DNA from: a virus
Taxonomy: Duplodnaviria > Heunggongvirae > Uroviricota > Caudoviricetes
Strand: one strand, 5' to 3'
Virus record (IMG/VR): IMGVR_UViG_3300046804_001058
Coordinates: 1 to 64,000 of that record
DNA: 64,000 nucleotides
Position numbers and translations under genes: made by a program. A model generated the notes under the pieces. It ran no database searches. It saw only the letters and a program-made list of their open reading frames with translations, and was not told where the DNA came from. Position 1 is the stretch's first letter. Each line of letters starts with the position of its first letter. This document shows, in pieces, positions 49,027 to 63,997 of the stretch.

Positions 49027-52000
49027 ATGGCAAGTTGCCCAAATACAAGTCTTGATTCTTGGAAGAAATTAGTAGAAGATAAAGGAGAGGATGCAGCATA
49101 CTACCTTTGGGATAAGTATGATGGAAACATTCCTGTAGACGCTACTGAAGAGCAATTGGCTGTAAAAGACAAATTGTTTCAAACTAAGAATGAGGTTAAG
49201 AAGGTTACTCTTGATAGTAAGGAAACAGATCCATTGTTGTTAGACTCTGAAGAAGCTAATAATGGATATCAAGTTCAAGATGAAACTGGTAAATGGACAC
49301 CTGTTCTTAAGAGGGTTACTAACAGAGTAAAAGCTTGGTATAAAGAAAAGTTTGGTACAAAGGTATTCAGTCCTCAAGAGCAAGCTTTTAATAATCTAAA
49401 GAGAGACTATGGTATTGCTGGTCATAATGATTTCCAAGAAATCCATGAAAGATATTACTATCCAGATGGAACTAAGAGAGATGTGCCTTTAGCTAGACCT
49501 ACAGAAATCAACTTGCCTTCAATGGATATGTATGACAAGTTGGAGAAGTATTATGTTGATCTTATCAATTCATTCCCAGAAGGAACTAACATCTATTCTG
49601 AGGTGGTGATTTATGATAAGAAAAATAAAGAGGCTGGTACAATTGACTTCTTGGCTGTTGAGCCTTCTGGTAAGGCAAACATCCTAGACTGGAAGTTTAT
49701 GTACATCAACGGTAATGATGTTGCTTGGTTTAAGCAAGGAGCTTTTAATATTCAGATTGGTACATACAAAGAGATGTTACGTACTAACTATGGTATCAAA
49801 GAGTTTGGAATGTTACGTGCTATCCCTATTGCTATGGACTTCCAACTTAAGAACAAACAAGATCCTAAGTTAGGCTATGACCTAAAAGGTATTGCAATTG
49901 GTTCTGTAGATAAAAGCCAGATTGATCCTGTTACAGACTTAAAACTTATCCCTGTATCTGAAGAAACAGAGTCCACTGGATTTGCTGCTTTAGATAAGGT
50001 GTTAAATAATCTGAATGCGTTATACCGTCAGTATAGTAAAGAACAAGTTACTAATGAGGAAGAGCGTCAATTCAAGATAGAAAGACTTAATCAGTTGAAG
50101 AAAGCTGTACGTATTGTACAGGGAACCAACAACTTACAACCTTTAATTGATGTAATTGAGGTTATGAGAAAGGATGGTGATAGAATCATGAATGACTATG
50201 AAGCTATCTACAAAGATAGACCTGCGTCTTCTGATGATTCTACTGATGCTGACTTATCTGACTTTGCTGCAGATATGAACAACTACATCAGATTCTCTGA
50301 GGTGTTCTCTACAATTAGTGATGATATTGGTGACCTAATCTGGAATGCAGAGATGGAATCTGCTGCTACATCTGAAGCAGAGAAAGAGAACATCAAAGCT
50401 AGAAAGGAAATCTTATTTAACTTAGAGAATGAATCTAAGTTAATTAGAAAATCAATTAAGAGTATTACAGAAGCTTCTGAGAAGTTTGCTGATAAACATA
50501 TTGGTGAAAGAAATTTGGTTACAGGTTTGACTAAAGCAGAGGCAGTCGTTAAAGGGCTTGCCTCTAACTTTAGAGGTATTTCTGAATTACCGTTACGTGC
50601 CCTACAAGTGTTATACAAGCTAACTAGAAATGCACAAGGTAAAGCATCTCAAGAATCTCTATCTGAGGTGGAAGAACTTATGGCTATTAGAAAGAAGTTA
50701 GCTGATAGAGGTGGTGATTTAAGAAAGCTTGTGCAGAAGATTTACCAAAAGGATGACTCAGGTAAGTTAGTTAACAAGCTTGTAAAAAAATTCAACTCAG
50801 ACTTCTATGAGCAAGTTGATGAGAAAGCTGCAGCTGGTGGAGATAGAGCTTGGTTAAATGAAAACATTGATGTAGAAGCTTACAAGAAAGAAGCTGAAGC
50901 AATATTAGAAAGACAACTTAGAAACATTGAAAGAAACTCATACGCTGGTAGTGATGAAGAAGTTGAGGATCAAAAACGTAGATATTCTGAAGAAGCTAAA
51001 CGTCTATGGGATATTGATCATAAAGATTTCAATGGTTGGAATAACTACGTAATCAAAAGACATCCATTAGATAAATGGTATTCTAAAGAATATGAGGAGA
51101 TTCAAGCTGATCCAGAATTACTTGAGCTTTATAACTACATTGGTAAAGTGAATGAGAAGGCTAAAGACTTAGGATACATCAACAACATGGTATCTAAGAA
51201 CTTCTTACCATTCATTAGAAAGAGTATGGCTGAGCAGTTAGTTTGGGATAACAAGCTATCTGTAATGAGCAACTTCTACAATAGCTTACAGATTAGAACT
51301 GATGATGCAGGTTATGGTCAGATCAATGAAGTGACTGGTGAATTAGAGAATAGCATTCCTAAATACTACACTACAGACTTTACTAAACAAGAAGATGGTA
51401 CAAATGACTACTCTGATGTGAGTGAAGACTTATTTAAGAACATGATCTTATACGTTCAGCAAGTGAACAAGTATAAGTACATGTCTGAGATTGAAGAGCA
51501 ACTTAAGTTAGTTAAGACTATTGAATCATTTAAGAAACATCTTAACACTAACCGTGTAGGTAATGTTGTTAGAAAAGGTGGTAAGGTAGAAGAACTTCCT
51601 GGTAATGAGGAGAATACAAAGATGTATGATCAGTTCTTACGTGCATTATTATATGAACAAAAGTATGTAATCAACGACTCTGATGTACCTTTGAATATTG
51701 ATAAGGTGTTAAACTTTGTTAAGAAAGGAATTAATAGAGTTGCTGGTAAAGAAGTGTATAAAGAAACTGACTCTACTACTGCTACATCTTTAGTTAAAAC
51801 TATAGACGCTGCTAATAGAGCATTTCAACTAAAAGCTCTTGGATTTGAATTCATCTCTGGTGCTGCCAACATGTTTGGTGGTAATATTCAGATTGCTACA
51901 CAGGCTGGAAACTATTTCAAGGCTAGAGAGTTTTTGAAAAATGAAACAAAACTAATTGGACAGAAGTTTGAAAGCAATGAGGAAAAGGAAATGTTTGTAC

Positions 52001-53277
52001 AATTAGTTAATACATTCATGCCTTTGAAAGATGATCCTACTTATGAGGAGTATAAGAAAGCTGGTATGTCTGCTTTGACAAGACAAAGTTTAGGAGACAC
52101 ATTGATGGTGTTCATGAGAAAACCAGAACATCTTCTTGAGAAAGCAGTGTTTACTACTCTATTAGAAAACGTAATGGTGGAGAATGGTAAGATTGTAAGT
52201 ATCAGAGAATTTGTTAAAGATAAGTATAAGAATAGATATGACTCAGCTTCTGATTTCAAAGACGCTAAAAGCAAAATGGAATCTGAGATTGAAGAACTTA
52301 AGAAGACTAGAGCCATTGCTGTAACTAAAAAATTAGAAGATGGTAAGTTAGTTATTCCTGGTCTTGACTTAACTAATAGAGCTGAGCTTCAAAGACTTAC
52401 AAACTTAACTAGACGTATTTCTAGAAATGCTACTGGAGGTTTGTCTGATGGTGATATCAACAGAATGTCTATGTCTATTTGGACTAAGTCTATGATGTTG
52501 TTCAAGAACTGGATTCCAAAACTAACAGATACTCGTTTCTCTGAGTTTAGAAAGGTGAGTGATGACTTCTCTGTACGTATTAATGAAGATGGTGTAGCTG
52601 AGGGAGAGAAATATGATGTGGGTAGAATTCGTTTACTAGCTTCTGTAATGGCTTCATCATTCCAAGATAAAGCTAATAACTTAATGAACATCATGAAAAT
52701 GAATGATGCTGGTATTGAGAAGTTAAATAAGATGTATGAAGAATACAGAGAGCAATATGAAAATGAGACAGGAGAAGTATTGAATATGACTAGAGAAGAT
52801 TTCATTGACATGATTAGAACTAACCTTCACAATCAGATCAAAGAACTTGCAATGTTAGGAGCTCTTATAGCATCTATGTTTGCTCTAGGATATATGGCTC
52901 CTGATGATGATGAAGATAAAGCTGCAAAGAACTTCCACCGTTTTACATTGAAGACAATGGACAAGTTTGTAAGTGAACTTTCATTCTTCTACAATCCTGT
53001 AAACTACGAGCAATTGTTAAGTGGATCTATGTTCCCAGCTTTAGGTATTGTAGGTGACTATTCTAGATTTATGTCTCACACATTTAGAGAAGTTACAGGG
53101 TTTGACTTTGATCCAAATACATCTGCTGAAGACGTAAGAAAGAAGGCTTATCCATTAAAATATGGTATGAAAGCGTTCCCTGTTTCAAAGTCTATTGTTA
53201 CTTATGCATCTATTCTTAATGCAGAATTTGCTAAAGATAATGATGTAACAATTCAAGCCCAAAGTAACATAAGATAA
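49027..53277 (+). CDS. very large virion protein (1416 aa); weak PD-(D/E)xK-like motif near aa 195-232
   Basis: ORF coupled (TAATATGG) to the giant ORF. 'GTIDFLAVEPSGKANILDWKF' resembles a D...(D/E)xK nuclease core. Confidence 0.4.
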   Translation: MASCPNTSLDSWKKLVEDKGEDAAYYLWDKYDGNIPVDATEEQLAVKDKLFQTKNEVKKVTLDSKETDPLLLDSEEANNGYQVQDETGKWTPVLKRVTNRVKAWYKEKFGTKVFSPQEQAFNNLKRDYGIAGHNDFQEIHERYYYPDGTKRDVPLARPTEINLPSMDMYDKLEKYYVDLINSFPEGTNIYSEVVIYDKKNKEAGTIDFLAVEPSGKANILDWKFMYINGNDVAWFKQGAFNIQIGTYKEMLRTNYGIKEFGMLRAIPIAMDFQLKNKQDPKLGYDLKGIAIGSVDKSQIDPVTDLKLIPVSEETESTGFAALDKVLNNLNALYRQYSKEQVTNEEERQFKIERLNQLKKAVRIVQGTNNLQPLIDVIEVMRKDGDRIMNDYEAIYKDRPASSDDSTDADLSDFAADMNNYIRFSEVFSTISDDIGDLIWNAEMESAATSEAEKENIKARKEILFNLENESKLIRKSIKSITEASEKFADKHIGERNLVTGLTKAEAVVKGLASNFRGISELPLRALQVLYKLTRNAQGKASQESLSEVEELMAIRKKLADRGGDLRKLVQKIYQKDDSGKLVNKLVKKFNSDFYEQVDEKAAAGGDRAWLNENIDVEAYKKEAEAILERQLRNIERNSYAGSDEEVEDQKRRYSEEAKRLWDIDHKDFNGWNNYVIKRHPLDKWYSKEYEEIQADPELLELYNYIGKVNEKAKDLGYINNMVSKNFLPFIRKSMAEQLVWDNKLSVMSNFYNSLQIRTDDAGYGQINEVTGELENSIPKYYTTDFTKQEDGTNDYSDVSEDLFKNMILYVQQVNKYKYMSEIEEQLKLVKTIESFKKHLNTNRVGNVVRKGGKVEELPGNEENTKMYDQFLRALLYEQKYVINDSDVPLNIDKVLNFVKKGINRVAGKEVYKETDSTTATSLVKTIDAANRAFQLKALGFEFISGAANMFGGNIQIATQAGNYFKAREFLKNETKLIGQKFESNEEKEMFVQLVNTFMPLKDDPTYEEYKKAGMSALTRQSLGDTLMVFMRKPEHLLEKAVFTTLLENVMVENGKIVSIREFVKDKYKNRYDSASDFKDAKSKMESEIEELKKTRAIAVTKKLEDGKLVIPGLDLTNRAELQRLTNLTRRISRNATGGLSDGDINRMSMSIWTKSMMLFKNWIPKLTDTRFSEFRKVSDDFSVRINEDGVAEGEKYDVGRIRLLASVMASSFQDKANNLMNIMKMNDAGIEKLNKMYEEYREQYENETGEVLNMTREDFIDMIRTNLHNQIKELAMLGALIASMFALGYMAPDDDEDKAAKNFHRFTLKTMDKFVSELSFFYNPVNYEQLLSGSMFPALGIVGDYSRFMSHTFREVTGFDFDPNTSAEDVRKKAYPLKYGMKAFPVSKSIVTYASILNAEFAKDNDVTIQAQSNIR

Positions 53278-55587: not shown

Positions 55588-58254
55588 ATGCCTTATTCTA
55601 ATATCACCTTAACAACACAAACTGGGTTATCATTTGTAACTGGAGAATTTATCCAGCTTATACATGATAGTAATAACTACATGTTTGGTCAATTGGTTTC
55701 TTATAATTCTGGTACAGGAAGTTTAACTTTCACTCCAACAAAAGTTGTTGGTAGTGGTACTTATGATACATGGGAAGTAATTGCCTCTGGTTCTGCTGGT
55801 GAAGATGGAACATCTGGTACAAGCGGAACTTCAGGAACTAGTGGTACCTCAGGAACAACTGGTACCTCAGGTACTAGTGCAACTTCTGGTACATCTGGTA
55901 GTACTGGAACTTCTGGAACTTCAGGCACTACTGGTACAAGTGGATCAAGTGGAACTTCTGGTACTACAGGAACTTCTGGTTCTTCTGGTACATCTGCTAC
56001 TTCAGGTACAAATGGTACTGGAGGTACGAGCGGAACTTCAGGTACTTCTGCAACTAGTGGTACAGCTGGTACTTCAGGTACAAGTGCTACAAGTGGAACT
56101 TCAGGTACCAGTGGTACAACTGGCACATCAGGTTCTTCTGGTACTTCTGGAACAAGAGGAACATCTGGTACTTCTGGAACAACAGGAGCAAATGGTACAT
56201 CAGGAACTTCAGGTACGTCTGGTATGACAGTAGGTAGTCCTGCTGTTATTATTGATGGCACAGGTACATGTTCTTCTGTTAGATGTGGTGTAAGTAATAC
56301 AGCATCAGGGTCATTTGCTGCTGCTTTAGGTGGGCAATCAAATCAAGCTCAAGGACTTAACTCATTTACTGGTGGAGGTAACTGCAACAATGTTTGCAAC
56401 TCTACTTCAGGATGTTTAGCATATGGTGCAGTTGTTGTAGGTGGTGTTGGTAACAACACTACTGGTGGTACGTGGTCACTTGCTTCTTGTGCTTTCACTG
56501 TAGCACCAACAGTATGTAATGCTGGCTCAATGTCATTTGTAGGAAGCGGTTTTCAAAATAGAGTATCTGGAGCTTGTTCATCTGTAGTAGGTGGTGCATG
56601 TAATACTGTATCAGGTATTTATTCATTTATAGGTGGGGGGCAATATAATTTAGCTAGTTGTAATTATTCTCTTATTTTAGGAGGTAATTCCAATACAGCA
56701 AGTGGTTTAGTTTCTTCTGTTATAGGAGGAGCTAATAATACTGCAAGTGGACGTCAATCTATTATTGGTGGAGGATACAATAATACTGCTAGTGCATATA
56801 ACTCATTTGTAGGAGGAGGTTATTTAAATTGTGCTACTTCATCCTATTCATTTGTAGGAGGAGGGAGTATTAATTCTAGCAGTGGTATGTATTCCTCTGT
56901 TGTAGGTGGATATAACAATAAAACTACAGGCAGTTATAATATTGTTGGAGGAGGAGTATTCAATAATATTTGTTCTACCTCCGGTTCATTTATTGGAGCA
57001 GGTGCTTGTAATGTTATTTGGCAACCTTATTCATCTATTGGAGGTGGATGTTGTAATTATGTGTCAGGTACAGTTTCATCTATTGGAGGTGGCTTTCTAA
57101 ATAAAATATGTGAGACAACTATATATAATTTTAATATTCCTTGTGGAGCCACAATTAGCGGAGGACAGGAAAGTACAGTTTTGTCATGCTATGGTACAAT
57201 TGGTGGAGGTTATTTTAATTGTGTTGGTTGCACTATATCTGCTAGTTATGCAGGATTAAATTGTCAATATACAGGAGGAAACAATGCTACTATTGGTGGA
57301 GGACAAAGTAACTTAGCTATTACTAATTATTCAGGGATTGGCAGTGGACAAGGTAATAGAATAGGCTGTTTATCTTATAGTGCCTATAGTGGTTGGTACG
57401 GACCTACAATACTTTTTAATTCATTTGGAGATTGTGCATTTATAGGTGGTGGATATAATAATATAATTTGTAGTAACGGCTCATTTATAGGTGGTGGATA
57501 TAATAATATTGCTGCTTTTGGGGGTCATGCTACTATAGGTGGTGGTCAATTTAACATAGCTTGTGGTATTAACTCTTTTGTTGGAGGAGGATTTACTAAC
57601 AAAGCTAGTGGGATTAAATCTAGTGTAGTTGGTGGTGCTTGTAATACTGCTAGTGCATATTATGCTTCTATTGTAGGTGGGTTTTTAAATGTTGCTTCTA
57701 CTAATTATACATTTATTGGAGGTGGTCGTAACAATACAGCTAGTGCTGCTGCTTCAGCAATACTTGGGGGCAACTTTAATACTGTATCAGGACAATATTC
57801 AGGTGCATTTGGATTTGGTGTTGTTAACAGTATTGCTTGTTCTTTTGCATCAAATCAATTATGGGCTTGCAATTTAGTTGGAACAAGTGTTGCGGTTTGC
57901 GTTGGTACAAATGGATTACTTGTTCGTGGAGCATCAGATTGTAGATTAAAGACAAATATATGTGACATTTCTTATGGGTTATGTGATGTCAATAAACTTA
58001 GACCTGTATCTTTTGATTGGAATGAACAAGAAAGAGATAGAAGAGGATGTAATAGACAAGTTGGATTTATTGCTCAGGAAGTTGAACCAATTATACCTGA
58101 AGCTGTAGGACAACAAGCTGATAACGGAGAATATTCATTAAGTCCTGATAAACTTATTCCAATATTAACAAAAGGGTTGCAAGAATTAAGTCAAGAAAAC
58201 GTATCACTTAAAGCAAGGTTGGAAGCCATTGAACAACATCTAAATTTAAAATAA
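55588..58254 (+). CDS. tail fibre: collagen-like tract plus about 14-residue beta-roll (YadA-head-like) repeats plus C-terminal S74 chaperone
   Basis: GTSGTSG tract (about aa 70-212). Then at least 25 degenerate repeats of form S-x-[IV]-[GV]-G-G-x-x-N-x-A-S-G-x (for example SFIGGGQYNLASCN, SVIGGANNTASGRQ). C-terminus '...GASDCRLKTNICD...LQELSQENVSLKARLEAIEQHLNLK' is the chaperone domain. Confidence 0.7.
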   Translation: MPYSNITLTTQTGLSFVTGEFIQLIHDSNNYMFGQLVSYNSGTGSLTFTPTKVVGSGTYDTWEVIASGSAGEDGTSGTSGTSGTSGTSGTTGTSGTSATSGTSGSTGTSGTSGTTGTSGSSGTSGTTGTSGSSGTSATSGTNGTGGTSGTSGTSATSGTAGTSGTSATSGTSGTSGTTGTSGSSGTSGTRGTSGTSGTTGANGTSGTSGTSGMTVGSPAVIIDGTGTCSSVRCGVSNTASGSFAAALGGQSNQAQGLNSFTGGGNCNNVCNSTSGCLAYGAVVVGGVGNNTTGGTWSLASCAFTVAPTVCNAGSMSFVGSGFQNRVSGACSSVVGGACNTVSGIYSFIGGGQYNLASCNYSLILGGNSNTASGLVSSVIGGANNTASGRQSIIGGGYNNTASAYNSFVGGGYLNCATSSYSFVGGGSINSSSGMYSSVVGGYNNKTTGSYNIVGGGVFNNICSTSGSFIGAGACNVIWQPYSSIGGGCCNYVSGTVSSIGGGFLNKICETTIYNFNIPCGATISGGQESTVLSCYGTIGGGYFNCVGCTISASYAGLNCQYTGGNNATIGGGQSNLAITNYSGIGSGQGNRIGCLSYSAYSGWYGPTILFNSFGDCAFIGGGYNNIICSNGSFIGGGYNNIAAFGGHATIGGGQFNIACGINSFVGGGFTNKASGIKSSVVGGACNTASAYYASIVGGFLNVASTNYTFIGGGRNNTASAAASAILGGNFNTVSGQYSGAFGFGVVNSIACSFASNQLWACNLVGTSVAVCVGTNGLLVRGASDCRLKTNICDISYGLCDVNKLRPVSFDWNEQERDRRGCNRQVGFIAQEVEPIIPEAVGQQADNGEYSLSPDKLIPILTKGLQELSQENVSLKARLEAIEQHLNLK

Positions 58255-58258
58255 CATT

Positions 58259-59494
58259 ATGAAAAATATAACAATTGTTGGTGGAGGATTGTCAGGATGG
58301 TTGACAGCATTATATGTAAAAAAGATTCAATTTTCACAAGAAGTTGTAGTTATTGAAAGTTCTGAAATAGGTATATTAGGAGCAGGAGAAGGTTCTGTTC
58401 CTTACTTAAGAAGTATGTTAATTGATTTGTTGGAAATTGACGAATCTATTTTTATTGAAAAAACAAAAAGTACCAAGAAGGCAGCTATAAACTTTGAAAA
58501 TTGGTCAGGTAATGGTACGAAATTTGACCATGATTTTATTGGTAAGAATCGTAAATACAATTCTGATGGCACTCCTGATTATAGTAAATCATATGCCTAT
58601 CATTTTGACGCAAGATTAATTGCTGATTTCTTAAAGAGCATTGCTATTGAGAGAGGTGTTAAAGTTATTGAAGGAGAGGTTGTTGATTTCAATTTAGACA
58701 TAGATAAAAACATTACAAGTATAGTTTTAAAGGACAATGCTGTTGTAGATACAAACTTTGTTTTTGATTGTAGTGGATTTAAGAGATTAATAATAGGAGG
58801 ATTATATAACTCATCTTGGACATCTTATGAAGATCAATTAAAAGTAAATACTGCTGTTCCATTTTTCCTTCCAAGAACTGACAATGAAGAATTTGTAAAG
58901 ACAGATGCAATTGCAATGGGATATGGTTGGATGTGGAAGATTCCTTTACAAGATAGATGGGGTTGTGGATATGTATTTGATAATAATTATATTACAGAAG
59001 CTGAAGCTAAAGATGAAGTCAAGTCTTACTTAGGAATTGATGTATCATTTAATAACACTTTAAGATTTAACTCAGGATGTTTCCAAGAAACTTGGGTAAA
59101 TAATTGTGTTGCAATAGGTTTGAGTTCAGGATTTATGGAGCCATTAGAGGCAACATCTATAATGATTTCAATTTTGCAATTATTTGCATTTCATGAAGAA
59201 GTTTTAAAGGTAGGAATTGATAGATACTCAGAGGTTAGAGATACTTATAATGAATTTATTAGAAGCCTTAATCAAGAATGTATGTTATTTGTTAGGCATC
59301 ATTATGTTTGCGATAAGGAAGATACTGACTTTTGGATTGATTATAAGAATCTACCATTGCCTGAAAAACTTGAAAAATATAAAAGAAACAACTTTGATGA
59401 TATAACTATGTTGCATTATTCAGACAAGAATATTAAACTATTTAATAATTGGAGTTACAAACTTGTAAATAATGGTAACTTTGATTTACAATAA
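58259..59494 (+). CDS. flavin-dependent halogenase (tryptophan halogenase family)
   Basis: N-terminal FAD fold 'ITIVGGGLSGWLTALYV' (compare RebH/PrnA 'IVGGGTAGW'). 'GAGEGSVPYL' matches GxGEATIP. 'KKAAINFENW' aligns with the catalytic-Lys region 'FKAAIKFVNW'. 'GWMWKIPL' is the WxWxIP signature. Starts 4 nt after the fibre stop. Confidence 0.7.
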   Translation: MKNITIVGGGLSGWLTALYVKKIQFSQEVVVIESSEIGILGAGEGSVPYLRSMLIDLLEIDESIFIEKTKSTKKAAINFENWSGNGTKFDHDFIGKNRKYNSDGTPDYSKSYAYHFDARLIADFLKSIAIERGVKVIEGEVVDFNLDIDKNITSIVLKDNAVVDTNFVFDCSGFKRLIIGGLYNSSWTSYEDQLKVNTAVPFFLPRTDNEEFVKTDAIAMGYGWMWKIPLQDRWGCGYVFDNNYITEAEAKDEVKSYLGIDVSFNNTLRFNSGCFQETWVNNCVAIGLSSGFMEPLEATSIMISILQLFAFHEEVLKVGIDRYSEVRDTYNEFIRSLNQECMLFVRHHYVCDKEDTDFWIDYKNLPLPEKLEKYKRNNFDDITMLHYSDKNIKLFNNWSYKLVNNGNFDLQ

Positions 59495-59501
59495 AAATAA
59501 A

Positions 59502-59738
59502 ATGAAGATAGTCAAATTAGAGTTGCTAGAATTTATTGGAGTAGCAATGAGAATCTTTTCATTTAGCATACTAGCAATAATGAGTAAAGATACACCACTT
59601 TTTACAATGTGGGTTATAAATACATTAGATGCAATTCTTTTAACGTATTGTGCGTGGAAGAGGAACAATCGTGCATATGTAGTACTAAATGTATTTTGGC
59701 TTATAGTAGGTATTGTTGGAATGATAAATTCTTTTTAA
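59502..59738 (+). CDS. small hydrophobic membrane protein (2-3 predicted TM helices)
   Basis: The track calls 59472..59738, but ATG 59502 (MKIVKLELLEF...) begins after the halogenase stop. Hydrophobic segments: FIGVAMRIFSFSILAIM and VVLNVFWLIVGIVGMI. Confidence 0.4.
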   Translation: MKIVKLELLEFIGVAMRIFSFSILAIMSKDTPLFTMWVINTLDAILLTYCAWKRNNRAYVVLNVFWLIVGIVGMINSF

Positions 59739-59777: not shown

Positions 59778-59999
59778 ATGGCAGATTTAACAGCCTTAGA
59801 GGCAGAATTAAGAGCAACTCAATTAGAAATTGAATTAGCAAGAAAAGCTAAAATGGAAGCATTTATTGCACAAAGAAAAGCTGAGGAAGAAGCAGCAGCA
59901 GCAGCTGAGGCAGCAAAAACTCCTGAGCAAAAAGCAGCAGAATTGCAAGCTAAAATTGATGAGCATAAAGCTCGTTTAGCTGAATTAAAAGCTGAATAA
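59778..59999 (+). CDS. small Ala/Glu/Lys-rich coiled-coil protein (73 aa)
   Basis: Starts ATGGCAG like many genes here; heptad-like ...LEAELRATQLEIELARKAKMEAF...AAELQAKIDEHKARLAELKAE. Confidence 0.45.
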   Translation: MADLTALEAELRATQLEIELARKAKMEAFIAQRKAEEEAAAAAEAAKTPEQKAAELQAKIDEHKARLAELKAE

Positions 60000-60054: not shown

Positions 60055-60921
60055 ATGAATATAATATTCCAAATTAATGGCGGTATTGGCAAGGTGATTG
60101 CTGGTACCGCCATTTGTGCTTCTATCAAGGCTAAGTATCCTGATAGTAAACTTATTGTTGTCTCTGGTTATCCAGATGTATTCTTAGGTAATAAGAATGT
60201 TGACAGAGCATACGCTTTTGGACAACAGGCTTATTTCTATAAGGAATACATTGAGAATCAAGAGATTATGGTATTTGCACACGATCCATACTTGGAAGCA
60301 AAGCACATTAAACAAGATGAACACCTTATTGAAACATGGTGTAATTTGTACGGTTTACCAGTGACAAAGACTGTTGGAGAGCTATTTCTTACACAAAGAG
60401 AAATAGATTTCTTTAGCAAAAAATTTGTTTCTGATAAGCCTATTTTTTTGATGCAAACTAATGGTGGTGCTGAGACAGAACAGAAATACTCTTGGGCTAG
60501 AGATATTCCTAGTTATGTGGTAGAAAATGTTATATATGAGTTCAAAGAACGATATAACATTGTTCATATAAAAAGAGAAGATCAAATAGGTTATGATGGG
60601 ACATTTGCTGTATCTGATACATTCAGAGCATTGATTGTTCTTATAAGCCTTAGTGAAAAGAGATTGTTAATGGATAGCTTTGGACAACATGCAGCAGCTG
60701 CTCTTGATAAACCATCCACTGTATTATGGATAGCTAATAGCCCTAAGGTATTTGGTTATGATTTACATACAAACATTGTAGCTAATCCAGAAACGACATC
60801 ACCTGAATTACGTAATGCGTATTTGAGTAAGTATAATATTGGAGGTGACCCTATTGAGTTTCCTTACAATAAAGAGTCTGAAATATTTAATGTAGATGCT
60901 GTAATTAACTCCTTAAAATAA
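60055..60921 (+). CDS. glycosyltransferase family 9-like (heptosyltransferase-fold) protein
   Basis: N-terminus 'MNIIFQINGGIGKVIAGTAICASIKAKYPDSKLIVV' parallels GT9 'KILVIRLSSLGDVILATP..RALK.AYPDAEI'. C-terminal 'LISLSEKRLLMDSFGQHAAAALDKPSTVLW' parallels '[30 protein letters not shown]'. Confidence 0.5.
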   Translation: MNIIFQINGGIGKVIAGTAICASIKAKYPDSKLIVVSGYPDVFLGNKNVDRAYAFGQQAYFYKEYIENQEIMVFAHDPYLEAKHIKQDEHLIETWCNLYGLPVTKTVGELFLTQREIDFFSKKFVSDKPIFLMQTNGGAETEQKYSWARDIPSYVVENVIYEFKERYNIVHIKREDQIGYDGTFAVSDTFRALIVLISLSEKRLLMDSFGQHAAAALDKPSTVLWIANSPKVFGYDLHTNIVANPETTSPELRNAYLSKYNIGGDPIEFPYNKESEIFNVDAVINSLK

Positions 60922-60927
60922 ACCAAC

Positions 60928-61749
60928 ATGGAAAAGATATTCTATCAAAGCTCATTACCTAGAGCAGGAAGTACGTTGTTGCAAAATATACTAGCTCAAA
61001 ATCCTGATATATATGCTACACCTACAAGTGGTGTATTAGAACTTATATTTGGTGCACGTGTTAATTATACAAACTCAGCAGAGTTTAAAGCTCAAGATCC
61101 TGAGTTAATGAAAATAGGATGGCAAGCTTTTGCTAAATCTGGAATGGATGCATTCTACAATGCTATTACAGATAAAAAATATGTGATAGATAAGTCTCGT
61201 GGATGGGGTATTCACTATGATTTCTTACAGTTTGTACAAGGTGGTGAACCTAAAATCATTTGCATGATAAGAGACCTACGTGACATCTTTGCTTCTATGG
61301 AGGGTAATTTTAGAAAGCATCCTGAGAAGCAATCAGACATTTTGGATTGGTCTAAAGGTCAGGGAACAACAGTCCCTAAACGTATAGATATATGGGCATC
61401 ACAGCCACCTGTAGGATTAGCATTAGAAAGATTAAGTGAAATTTTTAGAACTGGCATAGCTGATAAAATATTGTTTGTTAAGTTTGAAGACTTATGTTTA
61501 TATCCTGACACTACAATGATTAAGATATATGACTACTTAGGCATACCACATTTTCAACATGACTTTGATAACATTGAACAAGTTACTAAAGAAGATGATG
61601 AGATATATGGTGCATTTGGAGACCATGTTATTAGAACTAAACTTGAACCTGTAAGAAGCAAGGCGAAAGAGTTATTAGGCAAAGATGTATGTGATTGGAT
61701 ATGGACAAATTATGAATGGTTCTTTAAACAATTTAGATATACAAAATGA
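60928..61749 (+). CDS. sulfotransferase (PAPS-dependent, Sulfotransfer_3-like)
   Basis: 5'-PSB-like 'SLPRAGSTLLQNIL' (compare 'PRSGTTLLEQIL') and 3'-PB-like 'MIRDLRDIFAS' (compare 'RDPRD..VS'). Confidence 0.6.
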   Translation: MEKIFYQSSLPRAGSTLLQNILAQNPDIYATPTSGVLELIFGARVNYTNSAEFKAQDPELMKIGWQAFAKSGMDAFYNAITDKKYVIDKSRGWGIHYDFLQFVQGGEPKIICMIRDLRDIFASMEGNFRKHPEKQSDILDWSKGQGTTVPKRIDIWASQPPVGLALERLSEIFRTGIADKILFVKFEDLCLYPDTTMIKIYDYLGIPHFQHDFDNIEQVTKEDDEIYGAFGDHVIRTKLEPVRSKAKELLGKDVCDWIWTNYEWFFKQFRYTK

Positions 61750-61979
61750 TAGTAGATATCAGGTTTAATACAAATTACCCTGAGAAGAGTAAGTTTGAAT
61801 GGAGGGTGTTGGTAGATGGGAAAGAAAACTTAGTAAATACTATAAGATGTGAAGTTCCTACATATAGCAGCACTACATTTATTGAAGGTCACGGAATGAA
61901 ATGGCACATGAGTGCCATAGCAAATCAAGTGATTATTCAAGAACATATTAATAACGTAATCCACGCACAAATTATATGA
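61746..61979 (+). CDS. hypothetical protein (77 aa)
   Basis: ATGA-coupled ORF between the sulfotransferase and the kinase. Confidence 0.35.
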   Translation: MIVDIRFNTNYPEKSKFEWRVLVDGKENLVNTIRCEVPTYSSTTFIEGHGMKWHMSAIANQVIIQEHINNVIHAQII

Positions 61980-62413
61980 TAGTAGTATTATTTGGTCAGC
62001 CAGCTTCTGGCAAAACCACCTTAGCTAAGAAACTCATAGACAATAACTTTCATCACATAGATGGAGATAGTTTAAGAGATGTATTTAAAAACAAAGACTA
62101 TAGTAGAGAAGGACGTATCAAAAACTTGAATAGAGCTAGTGACATTGCTCACTACTTAGAGTTTATGGAAGGTCGTGATATAGTGTTGTCTTTGGTATAT
62201 CCTTATGAAGAAGCTAGAGAGTATCTTAGAAACTTAAACAAAAAAGCTAGATGGATCTACCTAATATATCAAGAAGATAGAGGTAGAGAACATTACAAAG
62301 TTGAAGACTTTGAAATCCCTCATGTGGACAATGTGGATTTAATTATTAACACTTCACACACTTCAGTAGAAGATAGTGTGGATCAAATCAAGCGTGTATG
62401 CAGAATATTTTAG
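61976..62413 (+). CDS. APS (adenylyl-sulfate) kinase-like P-loop kinase
   Basis: 'VVLFGQPASGKTTLAKKL' P-loop. 'HHIDGDSLRDVF...REGRIKNLNRASDIAHYLEFMEGRDIVLSLVYPYEEAREYLR' parallels CysC 'LDGDNVRHGL...DReENIRRigEVAkLF..aG.iv..afISPy...R...R'. Confidence 0.55.
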   Translation: MIVVLFGQPASGKTTLAKKLIDNNFHHIDGDSLRDVFKNKDYSREGRIKNLNRASDIAHYLEFMEGRDIVLSLVYPYEEAREYLRNLNKKARWIYLIYQEDRGREHYKVEDFEIPHVDNVDLIINTSHTSVEDSVDQIKRVCRIF

Positions 62414-62784
62414 CTAAAGGAAATCGCAAGACAGATGGTTATGCAATGTTCATAGGAAGATGGCAACCCTGGCATGCTGGTCACCAATGGTTAATTGATC
62501 AACAACTAAATCAAGGAAAGAAAGTGCTATTATGTGTAAGAGATGTACACAAGGATGATAAAAATCCTTGGTCTGCTTATGAAATTATGATGAATCTTGC
62601 TAACGAGTTAGAAGATTTAATTGAAGATGGTAAGGTGAGAATAATGATTATACCAGACATTGAGTCTGTAAACTTTGGTAGAGGAGTTGGATATGATATT
62701 ATTGAACACGTACCACCACAAGAAATAAATGATATCTCAGCCACAAATATTAGAGAACAATTAAAGGCTGAAGGGAAGTTATAA
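62398..62784 (+). CDS. cytidylyltransferase-family nucleotidyltransferase, TagD/HldE-domain-II-like (128 aa)
   Basis: 'AMFIGRWQPWHAGHQWLI' is an HxGH motif (compare TagD 'GTFDLLHWGHIKLL'). C-terminal 'ISATNIREQL' matches the conserved 'ISTTKI(K/R)E' motif. Length matches TagD (129 aa). Confidence 0.6.
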   Translation: MQNILAKGNRKTDGYAMFIGRWQPWHAGHQWLIDQQLNQGKKVLLCVRDVHKDDKNPWSAYEIMMNLANELEDLIEDGKVRIMIIPDIESVNFGRGVGYDIIEHVPPQEINDISATNIREQLKAEGKL

Positions 62785-63997
62785 CTTTCTCCGCTGTGAT
62801 ACCCCTATGACATTCAAAATGCTTAGGGGTATTTTTATTTATAGGACACCAGTCCCAGTCCCCTTTATCAAATTTAAAGTTAGGATTGTTCCAACAACCA
62901 TGACATAAAGTTGTATCTGTAACTCTTATACAGTTAGATTGAAACTCATGATCTGCCTCTGTGAAGTTACTAATCATCACTACAGGAGTACCAATAGCCC
63001 ATGCTAACCAGCTAAGTCCACTAGATAATCCTATAAAGAACTTAGCACTTGCTATTACAGACATTGTATTCTCCATAGATGTATCACTAATCTTAATGCA
63101 ATTCTTAAGTGGATTGTCTTCTTTAGATACATTTATCACTGAGTATCCTGAATCATTTAAAAAGTTAATAACTTCCTGCCAACCTTCTCTAGTCCAGAAT
63201 TTACATCCAGCTGTGCTATTGGTAGCAATTGCTACATAAGGAAAGTCCATAGAAGTTATTGGTCTATTAACATAGTTTATTTTAGGTTTTATCTCTTTCC
63301 ATTCTAATCCTAGTATATTACTAGCTGCCTTTTGTAAAGGAATTGTATTACATAACTCTGGTTCTTTATCTGGACTATATCTCCAACCAATAATATATTG
63401 ACCGTGTATATTATTTACTGTAGTTCCTGGAAGAACAAATTCAATTTCTGGATACGCTTCTTTAAACAAGAAGTTCTTATGTGTGCTTAATATAACATGA
63501 CATTTATGTTTCTTTCTAAACTCCTCACAGTATGGTACCCAAGCAATTGTATCTCCTAATGATGCACTATCAATAGAGATGTATACACGCTTACCTTCAT
63601 AGTTTAATGTCTCTTCATAGATGAGCTCACCGTCTTCCCACACTTTGGCTGTCCATTTAGTAAACCACTGTCTATTTAACTTCACCCAACTATTGCTACT
63701 GATTGTATTTTCATAATGACATACACCTGCCTCATCAAAGAACTTAACTAAGAACTTACTATCACTGTTACCTGTAATTTCTAGTCTAGGATTTTCTACA
63801 AACAATAGAGATATATCCACCTTTGTTTTTCTTTTCTTCTTAGGTTTGATAGGAATGAACATTATATTGTTATATAACTCATCATGCTCTTCTGCAAATC
63901 TATTGTCTGGTATATCATAGTGCACTATACCATGTATAAACTTTGATCTAACTTCATCTAGATCAGTATCTACAGGTAGAAGATAGTTAGTAAACAT
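62750..63997 (-). CDS. glycosyltransferase family 9-like protein, convergent; its 3' end overlaps the + strand operon by 35 nt
   Basis: Only minus-strand gene. C-terminal region '...AKFFIGLSSGLSWLAWAIGTPVVMISNFT' parallels the GT9 '[24 protein letters not shown]' motif. The N-terminal about 200 aa are a distinct domain. Confidence 0.5.
   Translation of the reverse strand: MFTNYLLPVDTDLDEVRSKFIHGIVHYDIPDNRFAEEHDELYNNIMFIPIKPKKKRKTKVDISLLFVENPRLEITGNSDSKFLVKFFDEAGVCHYENTISSNSWVKLNRQWFTKWTAKVWEDGELIYEETLNYEGKRVYISIDSASLGDTIAWVPYCEEFRKKHKCHVILSTHKNFLFKEAYPEIEFVLPGTTVNNIHGQYIIGWRYSPDKEPELCNTIPLQKAASNILGLEWKEIKPKINYVNRPITSMDFPYVAIATNSTAGCKFWTREGWQEVINFLNDSGYSVINVSKEDNPLKNCIKISDTSMENTMSVIASAKFFIGLSSGLSWLAWAIGTPVVMISNFTEADHEFQSNCIRVTDTTLCHGCWNNPNFKFDKGDWDWCPINKNTPKHFECHRGITAEKVITSLQPLIVL
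62799..62845 (+). terminator. rho-independent terminator closing the + strand operon (ATACCCCTA ... TAGGGGTAT plus TTTTTATTTAT)
   Basis: Perfect 9-bp stem at 62801-62809 and 62824-62832, 14-nt loop, then a T-run. It lies inside the 3' coding end of the convergent minus-strand gene. Confidence 0.55.

Follow-up and report, generated by a model that had tools for sequence, protein, structure and literature searches.

The question raised by this locus is whether a phage that encodes a sulfotransferase also encodes the means of making its sulfate donor, PAPS. An earlier note on the window (the whole stretch of DNA analysed here, 64,000 nucleotides in length) had placed a sulfotransferase two genes upstream of a CysC-like P-loop kinase, and had proposed that the two would make PAPS from host APS and sulfate a target, with the sulfated glycans of a flavobacterial host as the fitting context. 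The carrier is a large marine phage, distant kin of crAss-like and Cellulophaga phi4:1-like phages.

Layout of the operon and its surroundings

Five genes on the plus strand form one co-directional operon (60055-62784), comprising a 288-aa protein (60055..60921), a sulfotransferase of 273 aa, predicted to be PAPS-dependent (60928..61749), the 77-aa orf77, whose function is unassigned (61746..61979), a P-loop kinase of the APS-kinase family, 145 aa in length and with a short lid (61976..62413), and NT128, a 128-aa nucleotidyltransferase with HxGH and ISxTxxR motifs (62398..62784). Coordinates and order of the sulfotransferase and kinase are thus those given earlier. Only 6 nt separate the stop of the 288-aa gene from the sulfotransferase start, and from there onward every gene overlaps its neighbour: orf77 shares 4 nt with the sulfotransferase on one side and with the kinase on the other (ATGA at both junctions), and the kinase ends at 62413, past the start of NT128 at 62398. 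Pfam and PHROG searches with orf77 gave no match and no homologue was found in the related loci L001-L018; in L016, which lacks it, the sulfotransferase directly abuts the kinase, and these two genes abut in L017 as well. Because both enzymes belong to large homologue families in public data (more than 1,000 cluster representatives for the kinase and more than 3,000 for the sulfotransferase in public genomes and metagenomes, namely 1,193 and 3,451, with about 8,000 for the NT family of NT128), both are real genes, not open reading frames that arose by chance.

The surroundings of the operon are a virion-fibre and protein-glycosylation island. The gene for a TibC/Aah-type protein O-heptosyltransferase of 415 aa, on the minus strand (62750..63997), points towards the operon, with 35 nt of it lying within the 3' end of NT128; its product passes the NCBIfam equivalog cut-off for TIGR04414 (262.8 bits, cut-off 200), matches Pfam Glyco_transf_9 with 43.8 bits and aligns with the TibC structure 4rap over residues 102-405 (E=1.3e-48), and homologues occur in the islands of L001, L005, L006, L008 and L014-L017. 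Immediately upstream of the island lies a run of fibre genes, among them that for a repeat-rich 888-aa fibre protein (55588..58254, plus strand) with an N-terminal G-T-S collagen-like tract and, between about residues 230 and 760, about 24 copies of a repeat of some 15 aa (h-GG-xx-N..SG..S); similar repeat proteins are found ahead of the island in L016 and L017. The 288-aa protein is a conserved upstream partner of the sulfotransferase, being encoded directly upstream of it, at 64-65% identity, in L014-L018; its family matches are weak (RfaQ, E=0.025; phrog_8954, of unknown function), a PDB sequence search gave no match, and it is possibly a distant GT9-like glycosyltransferase.

Since the repeat-rich fibre protein and the TibC-type heptosyltransferase are neighbours of the operon, this arrangement suggests a virion protein, or the glycan on it, as the sulfated target, a proposal to which we give somewhat less than an even chance; by its position, the 888-aa fibre protein is a candidate acceptor of both glycosylation and sulfation. 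Nothing at the locus shows that host glycans are the target, the surroundings being instead those described above, and nothing shows a flavobacterial host: the terminase shares no more than 33-41% identity with its counterparts in Cellulophaga and Leptolyngbya phages. In a nucleotide search of phage genomes, the sole match was a 260-bp stretch of a Trp-halogenase gene in Pelagibacter phage HTVC008M, which is uninformative on host or function.

The sulfotransferase and the short-lid kinase

The product of 60928-61749 passes the Pfam gathering thresholds of Sulfotransfer_3 (58.3 bits, cut-off 27) and Sulfotransfer_1 (38.6 bits, cut-off 22) and matches phrog_27463 (E=4e-41). Both halves of the PAPS-binding apparatus can be aligned to human TPST1, as the earlier note had anticipated: the 5'-PSB motif P11-R12-A13-G14-S15-T16 to PRSGTT, with Arg in place of Lys as in TPSTs and CurM ST, and the 3'-PB segment R115...S123 (MIRDLRDIFAS) to MVRDGRASVHS. 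Among 25-26 homologues P11, R12 and G14-T16 are invariant, as are R115 and S123, while position 13 varies; the residues on whose conservation the assignment had been made to depend (R12, S15, R115, S123) are therefore present. The AF2 model (pLDDT 87.9) has sulfotransferases as all of its top 50 Foldseek matches in the PDB, the best being TPST2 (2e-8), CurM ST (1.5e-7) and 3-OST (4e-5), and in the alignment the position of the TPST catalytic Glu falls on the invariant segment T31-P-T-S-G35. Family scores, motifs and modelled fold together make it very probable that the predicted activity, that of a PAPS sulfotransferase, is correct.

As for divergent sulfotransferases in distant phage loci, family A9 (PRxGST...LLxR...ES...YEDIF) was tried and found weak support (Pfam E=1.4e-3 to 0.13; CurM ST E=0.022; hhalign 51%), though it is probably a mini-sulfotransferase; for family A10 ('LPRCASTS'), also from distant phage loci, sulfotransferase identity received no support.

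Profile searches of the kinase against CysC gave a divided result. Pfam APS_kinase (PF01583) was matched with 40.2 bits against a cut-off of 21.1, in an alignment confined to positions 4-106 of the 152 in the profile, the second-best family reaching 23 bits, and APS kinases account for 12 of the 13 matches below E=0.01 in a PDB sequence search (best 2yvu, E=3e-7), so that the kinase groups with APS kinases and not with the gluconate or shikimate kinases named as a risk in the earlier note. The curated NCBIfam cut-offs were all missed (PRK05541, 45.9 vs 127; TIGR00455, 39.6 vs 138.7; PRK00889, 29.7 vs 244).

Alignment with the canonical CysC domains fused to the NT family shows which parts are kept. 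These include the Walker A motif (G7-Q-P-A-S-G12-K13-T-T15) and the second motif I28-D29-G30-D31-S-L-R34, that is, IDGDSLR at residues 28-34 in register with LDGDxxR, which bears out the CysC-type motif described earlier. Invariant across short and canonical forms are G7, G12, K13, T15, D29, G30 and R34, and D31 is invariant among the phage kinases, with Glu at that position in one fusion. Residues Y42-S43-R-E-G46-R47-I-K-N50 occupy the GFSxEDRxEN columns of canonical domains and S72-L-V-Y-P76 the SFISP columns; the GFSxEDRxEN-type and SP-strand residues we take, from published structures, to be APS contacts. R81 and E113-x-P115 are also kept. The lid falls 18 residues short of its length in canonical CysC: two deletions, of 4 and 14 aa, remove 'PLEV' and 'VRKGEIKNFTGIDS' and leave E-D-R-G-R-E-H-Y alone, the segment KNFTGID being among the residues lost, and the full mobile lid RDxKGLYKKARxGEIxxFTGID is not kept. 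In the structures of the P. chrysogenum enzyme and human PAPSS1, the canonical lid segment helps to hold APS. Judged by its sequence, with the shortened lid and the failed equivalog cut-offs, the kinase is not a standard CysC; that it supplies PAPS is nevertheless predicted, and we consider this likely.

NT128 and its partners in phages and cells

The gene that overlaps the kinase, NT128 (62398-62784), was missing from the earlier account. Its product combines the nucleotidyltransferase motifs HxxH and ISxTxxR with a Rossmann-like fold, and its nearest relatives, by sequence as well as by fold, are archaeal NMNAT/NadM enzymes, whose signature it bears as GRWQPWHAGH. It gave no match to Pfam PF01747 (ATP sulfurylase, Sat), which three fused homologues reach only below threshold (21.6, 17.0 and 15.8 bits vs 24.3); the Sat motifs QxRN and GRDHAG are not in its sequence, G-R-W-Q-P preceding HxGH instead. 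An invariant segment, G94-R95-G-V-G-Y99, coincides with the part of the structure model where pLDDT falls below 50, exactly at the GRGVG loop.

Linkage of this family to APS kinases recurs widely. Among 20 phage loci with the NT128 homologue as a separate protein, 18 have its gene adjacent to or overlapping that of the kinase (L001-L006, L008-L013 and L019-L022 being listed, with contigs of 213 and 340 kb included); in the other two, L016 and L017, it lies 2.5 kb from the kinase, with an ADP-heptose-like cassette inserted between them. The sulfotransferase and kinase are some 9 kb apart within one island in L001 and L005, and beside the sulfotransferase of L014/L015 (84% identical) neither kinase nor NT was found in the surrounding stretch (±10 kb in L014). 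Both domains are joined in a single protein in phrog_10255, represented by gp32 of Xylella phage Salvo, and 9 of 10 long NT128 homologues sampled contain Pfam APS_kinase, in both domain orders. Some of these partners are full-length, canonical CysC domains (230.7, 188.7, 178.9 and 172.5 bits), and on phage contig L024 the NT is likewise fused to a full-length APS-kinase domain of canonical type.

Of 79 cellular loci, 55 have the NT and an APS-kinase domain either in one fusion or side by side, and beyond phages this association extends to CPR bacteria, DPANN archaea, Planctomycetota and Omnitrophota, among others. No Pfam family outnumbers the sulfotransferases in the vicinity of 44 cellular NT(-kinase) loci: in a first batch (±4 kb, 149 ORFs) they rank first, with 10 matches to Sulfotransfer_3, 7 to Sulfotransfer_1 and 3 to Sulfotransfer_5, and in a second (122 ORFs) Sulfotransfer_3 is tied for first with 4. 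The closest cellular homologues of the phage kinase and NT128 pair, from Marinimicrobia single-cell genomes and a Flavobacteriales MAG, are located in polysaccharide clusters with a Sulfotransfer_5 gene. These many cellular neighbours, together with the single operon of the phage and the abutting genes of L016, uphold the functional link between sulfotransferase and APS-kinase-type kinase that had been claimed. Sulfotransferases were not found in the stretch examined around Salvo-like phage genes and many alphaproteobacterial fusions, and standalone NT genes of Dadabacteria and Thermodesulfobacteriota lie in housekeeping synteny, with neither kinase nor sulfotransferase in the fetched ±10 kb. 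The Dadabacteria context consists of housekeeping genes only and says nothing about substrate. A sulfotransferase is nearby in 22 of 55 module loci vs 1 of 24 standalone NT loci (Fisher p=0.001), a value that rises to 0.24 once the 18 Dadabacteria-type loci are counted as a single lineage; for this reason the test is not relied on and the neighbourhood Pfam counts are used instead.

Because the gene overlapping the kinase belongs to a family fused or adjacent to APS kinases, the proposal that PAPS is made from host APS is probably incomplete: the APS-type kinase it invoked stands, and the NT128 family would fit the preceding activation of sulfate. NT128 is the best candidate for this 'missing' step, and we infer, with the balance tilted only slightly in favour, that it performs the sulfurylase reaction.

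The readings that compete with a sulfurylase can be weighed against the same data. Host-made APS might be turned into PAPS by the kinase, with NT128 tied to the pathway in some other way (regulation or other adenylyl transfer). The family assignments of sulfotransferase and kinase would hold equally in that case; NT128 is NMNAT-like and outside the Sat family, and in L023 (Acidobacteriota) an NT-CysC fusion stands beside CysD and CysN, so that a sulfurylase is already present there, which counts against NT128 in that role. Left unexplained by a host supply of APS, however, is the fusion or adjacency of NT to APS kinase in both orders and in many lineages, and we know of no alternative reaction that joins a nucleotidyltransferase to APS kinase. 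Moreover, of the 105 loci fetched, 103 have no canonical sulfurylase gene: the Sat signature motif was found in none, and CysD/CysN at one genomic place only, fetched twice (L023 and L043). We therefore regard this explanation as unlikely.

Another reading is NadR-like NAD salvage, in which the kinase would phosphorylate nicotinamide riboside (NR), NT128 would adenylylate NMN to NAD+ and the sulfotransferase would be unrelated; countering an NAD-depleting defence is one purpose that such a pair might serve. Pfam scores and fusion partners make this improbable: the kinase scores 40 bits with APS_kinase against 22 with NadR-type AAA_28 (below its cut-off of 27), and the NT is fused to canonical CysC of up to 230 bits. 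NMNAT models match only about residues 15-90 of NT128, roughly its first 75 residues, at scores far from their cut-offs (PRK01153, 36.3 vs 127; TIGR01527, 32.7 vs 181), and its DIE-to-ISxT spacing is about 24 residues shorter than that of the M. jannaschii enzyme (23 vs 46-47). No NAD metabolism genes (Nudix, NadV, RNK) were seen among the neighbours of NT loci, which are instead APS-kinase domains, sulfotransferases and glycan genes. A supply of ADP-heptose or another NDP-sugar for the GT9/TibC heptosyltransferases is more improbable still; it is rejected because L016 and L017 carry a separate cassette for this (an HldC-like NTase with GAFDILHIGH/ISTTKI, a PfkB kinase, a HAD-like phosphatase, a cupin and an epimerase) in addition to the kinase and NT128 homologue, and the kinase belongs with APS kinases and not with ribokinases or GHMP kinases, while fusions to canonical CysC would make no sense for heptose activation. 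Least credible of all is a PPAT/DPCK-like pair making some other 3'-phospho-adenylylated compound, as in CoA synthesis, with the sulfotransferase-like protein using that compound or host PAPS: with Pfam CoaE the kinase reaches a negligible 14.8 bits (vs 40.2 with APS_kinase), the PAPS-binding motifs of the sulfotransferase are canonical and, again, the fusion partners are canonical CysC.

A proposed sulfation pathway and known systems

Given a sulfotransferase in one operon with an APS-kinase-type kinase and NT128, the phage probably makes its own PAPS. In the proposed pathway NT128, as a minimal HxGH nucleotidyltransferase from the archaeal NMNAT/NadM lineage, would move AMP from ATP onto sulfate, yielding APS and PPi; the kinase, an APS kinase by family, would then phosphorylate the 3'-OH of APS (APS + ATP to PAPS); and the TPST/CurM-like sulfotransferase, with its PAPS-binding apparatus, would place the sulfate of PAPS on an acceptor. 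This acceptor would most plausibly be a phage structural protein or glycan, for instance the repeat-rich fibre heptosylated by the TibC-type enzyme, and the module would then be independent of host APS or PAPS. That the three genes form such a self-contained PAPS-synthesis and sulfation module within the virion glycosylation island is, on balance, the reading that we favour. The wider proposal, that NT128 represents an unrecognised NMNAT-derived class of ATP sulfurylase (about 115-130 residues), which together with APS kinase would constitute a minimal PAPS synthase in phages and cells and allow this phage to sulfate its own heptosylated fibres, we rate as just short of an even chance.

The minimal pair of NT and APS kinase occurs in marine phages and in genomes labelled CPR, DPANN, Planctomycetota, Omnitrophota, Marinimicrobia and others. 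If NT128 does activate sulfate, it would provide a third, miniature route for the first activation step beside Sat and CysDN, and the NT module is present in fetched loci from genomes labelled CPR and DPANN, groups that, to our knowledge, are usually assumed to be without sulfate activation. Metagenome annotation would then understate the capacity for sulfation, since such genes now go by the names 'NMN adenylyltransferase', 'phosphopantetheine adenylyltransferase' or 'kinase'. Abundant marine phages would hold a whole pathway for sulfating a target, probably their own fibre glycoproteins, in what would be the first virion sulfation system; fibre sulfation would bear on host recognition, on adhesion to a marine matrix rich in sulfated polysaccharides and on evasion of receptor-blocking.

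Our literature searches found no paper on a phage operon joining a sulfotransferase to an APS kinase or PAPS-synthesis pair, and none on NT-CysC fusions or the function of DUF2061. Virus-encoded sulfur genes such as cysC, cysH and cysD/N are known as auxiliary metabolic genes. Synechococcus phages S-SKS1, S-SRM01 and S-SCSM1 have annotated sulfotransferases 26-29% identical to the enzyme described here, and were not among the matches when the kinase and NT128 were compared with the phage collection by tblastn. Salvo gp32 (phrog_10255) and its relatives in Xanthomonas and Stenotrophomonas phages combine short APS-kinase-like and NT128-like domains, 38-39% identical to the kinase and NT128, in one 248-aa protein, fused where ours are split; the gp32 gene, annotated just 'kinase', is found among early genes together with MazG and a 'cysteine dioxygenase', and the searches detected no homologue of the present sulfotransferase in Salvo-type phages.

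Among enzymes that share motifs with NT128, NMNAT, NadM and NadR (PDB 1f9a, 2qjo, 1hyb) have GRxQPxHxGH, NP(F/W)(S/T)A, DIE and (I/Y)SxTxIR in common with it, but they are 40-50 residues longer, and NMNATs show GSA and SGNP in place of its invariant R48-D49 and G94-R95-G-V-G-Y99; NT128 also stays far from the NMNAT cut-offs and has APS kinase, not NAD genes, as its genomic partner. The fused PAPS synthases, metazoan PAPSS1/2 and the Aquifex Sat-CysC protein (PDB 1xjq, 2gks), contain a far larger Sat domain (1r6x, 386 residues), which has a PUA-like N-domain and the motifs QxRNPxHxxH and GRDHAG, whereas NT128, with 128 aa and no PF01747 match, has GRWQPWHAGH and GRGVGY.

The closest parallels in organisation are the rhizobial NodP/NodQ/NodH and Xanthomonas RaxP/RaxQ/RaxST systems, in which genes for sulfate activation accompany a dedicated sulfotransferase acting on one particular molecule, either secreted or at the surface. 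RaxST, which sulfates tyrosine, is TPST-like, and the TPST fold class is the closest to the phage enzyme; the same logic of activation plus sulfotransferase is seen in cellular loci such as L023 and L045-L057, among others. The Nod and Rax systems rely on a GTPase-coupled CysD/CysN sulfurylase and a full-length CysC, whereas the present genes are carried by a phage, the lid of the kinase is short and the role of sulfurylase is proposed for an NMNAT-like protein of 128 aa, homologous to neither PF01747 nor CysD.

A sulfotransferase and a lid-shortened kinase downstream of the fibre genes

The window is phage DNA: besides a long series of fibre genes it codes for a large terminase, a portal and a major head protein. 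The terminase shares 41% identity with its counterpart in Leptolyngbya phage Lbo-JY46 and 33% with the terminases of Cellulophaga phages phi4:1 and phi17:2, crAss-like phages coming next at 26-29%. Ahead of the fibre genes lie two giant ORFs, 37593-49025 (+, 3,810 aa) and 49027-53277 (+, 1,416 aa). The related phages L014, L016 and L017 encode proteins of 2,700-4,300 aa at the equivalent position, and those of L016 and L017 have repeats resembling those of the window's 888-aa fibre (55588-58254, +). Downstream of the fibre genes, a string of genes runs from an FAD Trp-halogenase-like protein (58259-59494, +) through two small ORFs (59472-59738 and 59778-59999, both +), a 288-aa protein with no assigned function (60055-60921, +), the sulfotransferase (60928-61749, +), the 77-aa orf77 (61746-61979, +), the kinase (61976-62413, +) and NT128, a 128-aa nucleotidyltransferase (NT; 62398-62784, +), to a 415-aa glycosyltransferase on the other strand (62750-63997, -). 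The genes from 60055 to 62784 are all co-directional, with a 6-nt gap at the first junction followed by overlaps of 4, 4 and 16 nt, an operon-like arrangement. The halogenase-like protein belongs to the FAD-dependent tryptophan-halogenase family (Pfam, 319 bits), a 260-nt stretch of its gene shares 70% DNA identity with Pelagibacter phage HTVC008M, and homologues also occur near the kinase-NT pair in phage loci L009 and L010.

The sulfotransferase scores above the gathering thresholds of both Sulfotransfer_3 and Sulfotransfer_1 in Pfam. When a profile of the protein and 25 homologues was aligned with human TPST1, residues 11-16 (PRAGST) corresponded to the 5'-phosphosulfate loop PRSGTT, and R115 and S123 (MIRDLRDIFAS) to the 3'-phosphate motif MVRDGRASVHS, so that the 5'-PSB and 3'-PB residues expected from the earlier note's reading of PAPS-binding motifs are both present; these residues are invariant among the homologues except at position 13. 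Its AlphaFold model (pLDDT 87.9) matched sulfotransferases only, in the order tyrosylprotein sulfotransferases (E=2e-8), CurM/olefin-synthase ST domains and heparan 3-O-sulfotransferases.

The proposed relationship of the kinase to CysC was borne out by Pfam, NCBIfam and PDB comparisons, all of which favour APS kinase over gluconate or shikimate kinases. APS_kinase is its best Pfam family (40.2 bits, cut-off 21.1; next family 23 bits), its best four NCBIfam matches are all adenylyl-sulfate kinase models (gluconokinase, 17 bits), and, of 13 sequences matched in the PDB at E<0.01, 12 come from APS kinases or APS-kinase domains. The protein is nevertheless atypical, covering two thirds of the Pfam APS_kinase profile and missing the NCBIfam cut-offs by a wide margin. 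Alignment with canonical CysC domains taken from NT-family fusions shows that the P-loop, D29-G-D31, R34, Y42-S43, R47, N50, S72..P76, R81 and E113-x-P115 are kept, while the lid is shortened by deletions of 4 and 14 residues that include the KNFTGID segment. An APS-kinase family member with a shortened lid is the most fitting description of the protein, its substrate being inferred.

NT128 and its association with APS kinases

The earlier note had combined these two enzymes into a self-supplied sulfation module; both were found, but the gene overlapping that of the kinase, NT128, had been missed. NT128 carries both motifs of HxGH nucleotidyltransferases (G-R-W-Q-P-W-H-A-G-H and I-S-A-T-N-I-R) and lies barely above the Pfam CTP_transf_like cut-off. 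Among characterised proteins, archaeal NMNAT and NadM are its nearest relatives; it scores 36 bits against their NCBIfam models, far under the cut-off of 127, and it matches NMNAT-type sequences in the PDB over its N-terminal portion only (E=1e-4). In contrast with NMNATs, NT128 is about 24 residues shorter in the interval from the conserved DIE motif to the conserved ISxT motif, and where NMNATs have GSA and SGNP its family has the invariant R48-D49 and G94-R95-G-V-G-Y99. We infer that these changes would remove part of the NMN pocket and add anion ligands; model confidence is lowest at the GRGVG loop. Members of the family are at present annotated as NMNAT, PPAT or 'kinase'.

The genomic behaviour of NT128 ties it to the kinase. 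Twenty fetched phage loci, reached via the kinase, the sulfotransferase or the NT, encode a separate NT128 homologue, which overlaps or abuts a kinase homologue in 18 (L001-L006, L008-L013, L019-L022); in the other two, L016 and L017, an inserted cassette leaves them 2.5 kb apart. The two domains are also found fused: phrog_10255 ('kinase') matches the window kinase in its N-terminal half and NT128 in its C-terminal half, and one of its members, the 248-aa gp32 of Xylella phage Salvo, unites the two. An exhaustive HMMER search with NT128 against 1.84 billion cluster representatives returned 1,094 relatives, of which many have 250-380 aa, and nine of ten long relatives scanned with Pfam contained an APS_kinase domain, three in the order kinase-NT and six in the order NT-kinase. 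Several of the fused kinases are canonical full-length CysC (230.7, 188.7, 178.9, 172.5 and 169.7 bits) with the textbook motifs LDGDNIR, GFSxEDRxENIRR, SFISP and KGLYKK..NFTGID, and in phage contig L024 the NT is likewise fused to a full-length APS-kinase domain of canonical type.

As regards sulfotransferases, the partner in the more distant phage loci is only a weakly supported family of 173-217 aa marked by a PRxGST loop at the N-terminus, the motif LLxR..ES and, at the C-terminus, YEDIF, which accompanies the kinase-NT pair in all of them (L010:10799-11422, L010:13383-13904, L009:13022-13675, L011:15517-16080, L019:14277-14897, L021:13671-14237). Its matches (Pfam, E=1.4e-3 to 0.13; CurM ST, E=0.022) hint that these are probably miniature sulfotransferases. 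In Salvo-like phages the stretch examined showed no sulfotransferase, and in the close relative L014/L015 the region fetched around its sulfotransferase (84% identical) contained neither kinase nor NT.

Other genes recur in these neighbourhoods. In each of the other phage loci (L001-L006, L008-L013, L016-L017, L019-L022, L024-L025; e.g., L021:10347-10562, L024:11034-11261), a DUF2061 gene for a predicted membrane protein of 71-75 aa (RKRHIAK...HERxWY) is no more than about 0.6 kb from the pair or fusion, whereas all frames of the whole 64 kb window yielded no homologue; a part for this protein in sulfate entry would be pure speculation. 2OG-Fe(II) oxygenases are densely represented in the islands of L001, L005, L009-L011 and L019-L022, several of which also have radical-SAM/SPASM or B12-radical-SAM enzymes, carbamoyltransferases, Asp/Arg hydroxylases and DUF6071 proteins, which suggests extensive enzymatic tailoring of protein or glycan.

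The association extends to cellular genomes. An NT alignment searched against one genome per species gave 80 loci, 79 of them distinct, and in 55 of these an APS-kinase domain is either part of the same protein as the NT or encoded within 300 bp of it; by record title the 55 come from Planctomycetota, Omnitrophota, Marinimicrobia, Flavobacteriales, Acidobacteriota, Chlamydiae, Alphaproteobacteria, several CPR phyla and archaea. Every ORF within 4 kb of the NT gene was compared with Pfam in two batches of 22 such loci. Sulfotransferases were the top family among the 149 ORFs of the first (Sulfotransfer_3, 10; Sulfotransfer_1, 7; Sulfotransfer_5, 3) and joint top with GT2 and ABC transporter among the 122 ORFs of the second (Sulfotransfer_3, 4; Sulfotransfer_1, 3), other neighbours belonging to glycan biosynthesis; at many alphaproteobacterial fusion loci no sulfotransferase was seen in the stretch examined. 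The closest cellular homologues of the window pair (NT 55-63% identical, short-type kinase 40-43%) are from Marinimicrobia single-cell genomes and a Flavobacteriales MAG, where they belong to polysaccharide clusters that include a Sulfotransfer_5 gene (163 bits). A His_Phos_1 gene, whose product could clear the by-product PAP, is found some 0.9 kb away from the module in one Marinimicrobia genome (L050:11242-11985) and immediately follows it in a CPR genome (L067:5773-6420).

Possible reaction of NT128

The simplest mechanism would be that NT128 adenylylates sulfate, which would be NMNAT chemistry with sulfate replacing the phosphate of NMN. The shortened DIE-ISxT interval and the invariant R48-D49 and G94-R95-G-V-G-Y99 would accord with such a reaction. 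The main surviving rival is the version in the earlier note, by which host APS is used, NT128 then having some other role. NT128 fell outside the Sat family in every test run, which favours host APS, as does an Acidobacteriota locus whose NT-CysC fusion adjoins CysD and CysN, a sulfurylase thus being present there already; this is the single genomic place with CysD/CysN among the 105 fetched loci (fetched twice, as L023 and L043), and no ORF in any of the 105 has Sat signature motifs. Against that version stands the recurrence of the linkage, in 18/20 phage loci, in fusions of both orders and in 55/79 cellular loci.

Two further readings fare worse than sulfate adenylylation. A NadR-like pair for NAD salvage conflicts with the canonical CysC fusion partners and with the neighbourhood, and a role in ADP-heptose synthesis is excluded in practice by L016 and L017, where the insert between kinase and NT128 homologue is a dedicated five-gene ADP-heptose-like cassette (L016:11237-13832) of a cupin, a HAD-like DxDxT protein, an HldC-like NTase, a PfkB kinase and an SDR epimerase. 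The key control for the sulfurylase reading comes from eighteen Dadabacteria/Thermodesulfobacteriota genomes in which an NT128 homologue stands alone in a housekeeping context, the stretch fetched containing neither a kinase nor a sulfotransferase; an essential NMNAT fits this as well as an assimilatory sulfurylase does. These homologues (about 152 aa; L026-L044, including related MAGs; e.g., L028:9947-10405) share a conserved block with genes for Leu/Phe-tRNA protein transferase, GATase, UbiA/UbiD/UbiX, MsrA and ALAD.

Possible target and comparison with known systems

The glycosyltransferase at 62750-63997 is a TibC/Aah-type protein O-heptosyltransferase, passing the cut-off of the NCBIfam equivalog TIGR04414 (263 vs 200 bits) and matching the solved TibC structure (E=1.3e-48). 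The fibre gene upstream of the island encodes about 24 copies of a GG-xx-N..SG..S repeat of about 15 residues, reminiscent of adhesin repeats, and the two genes together suggest that the phage may heptosylate its own fibre. The window lacks the ADP-heptose-like cassette, so host ADP-heptose would supply the heptosyltransferases of this phage. The nearest folds of the sulfotransferase are protein-tyrosine sulfotransferases, and a reasonable picture would be a heptosylated fibre that is sulfated as well, on sugar or on Tyr/Ser.

To our knowledge, heptosylation by a phage of its own fibre has not been described, and the NT128 family as partner of APS kinase, and candidate miniature sulfurylase, also appears to be undescribed in the literature searched. 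The phage sulfation module itself is of a known sort, since sulfotransferases are annotated in a few cyanophages and cysC-type genes of viruses count among the known auxiliary metabolic genes.
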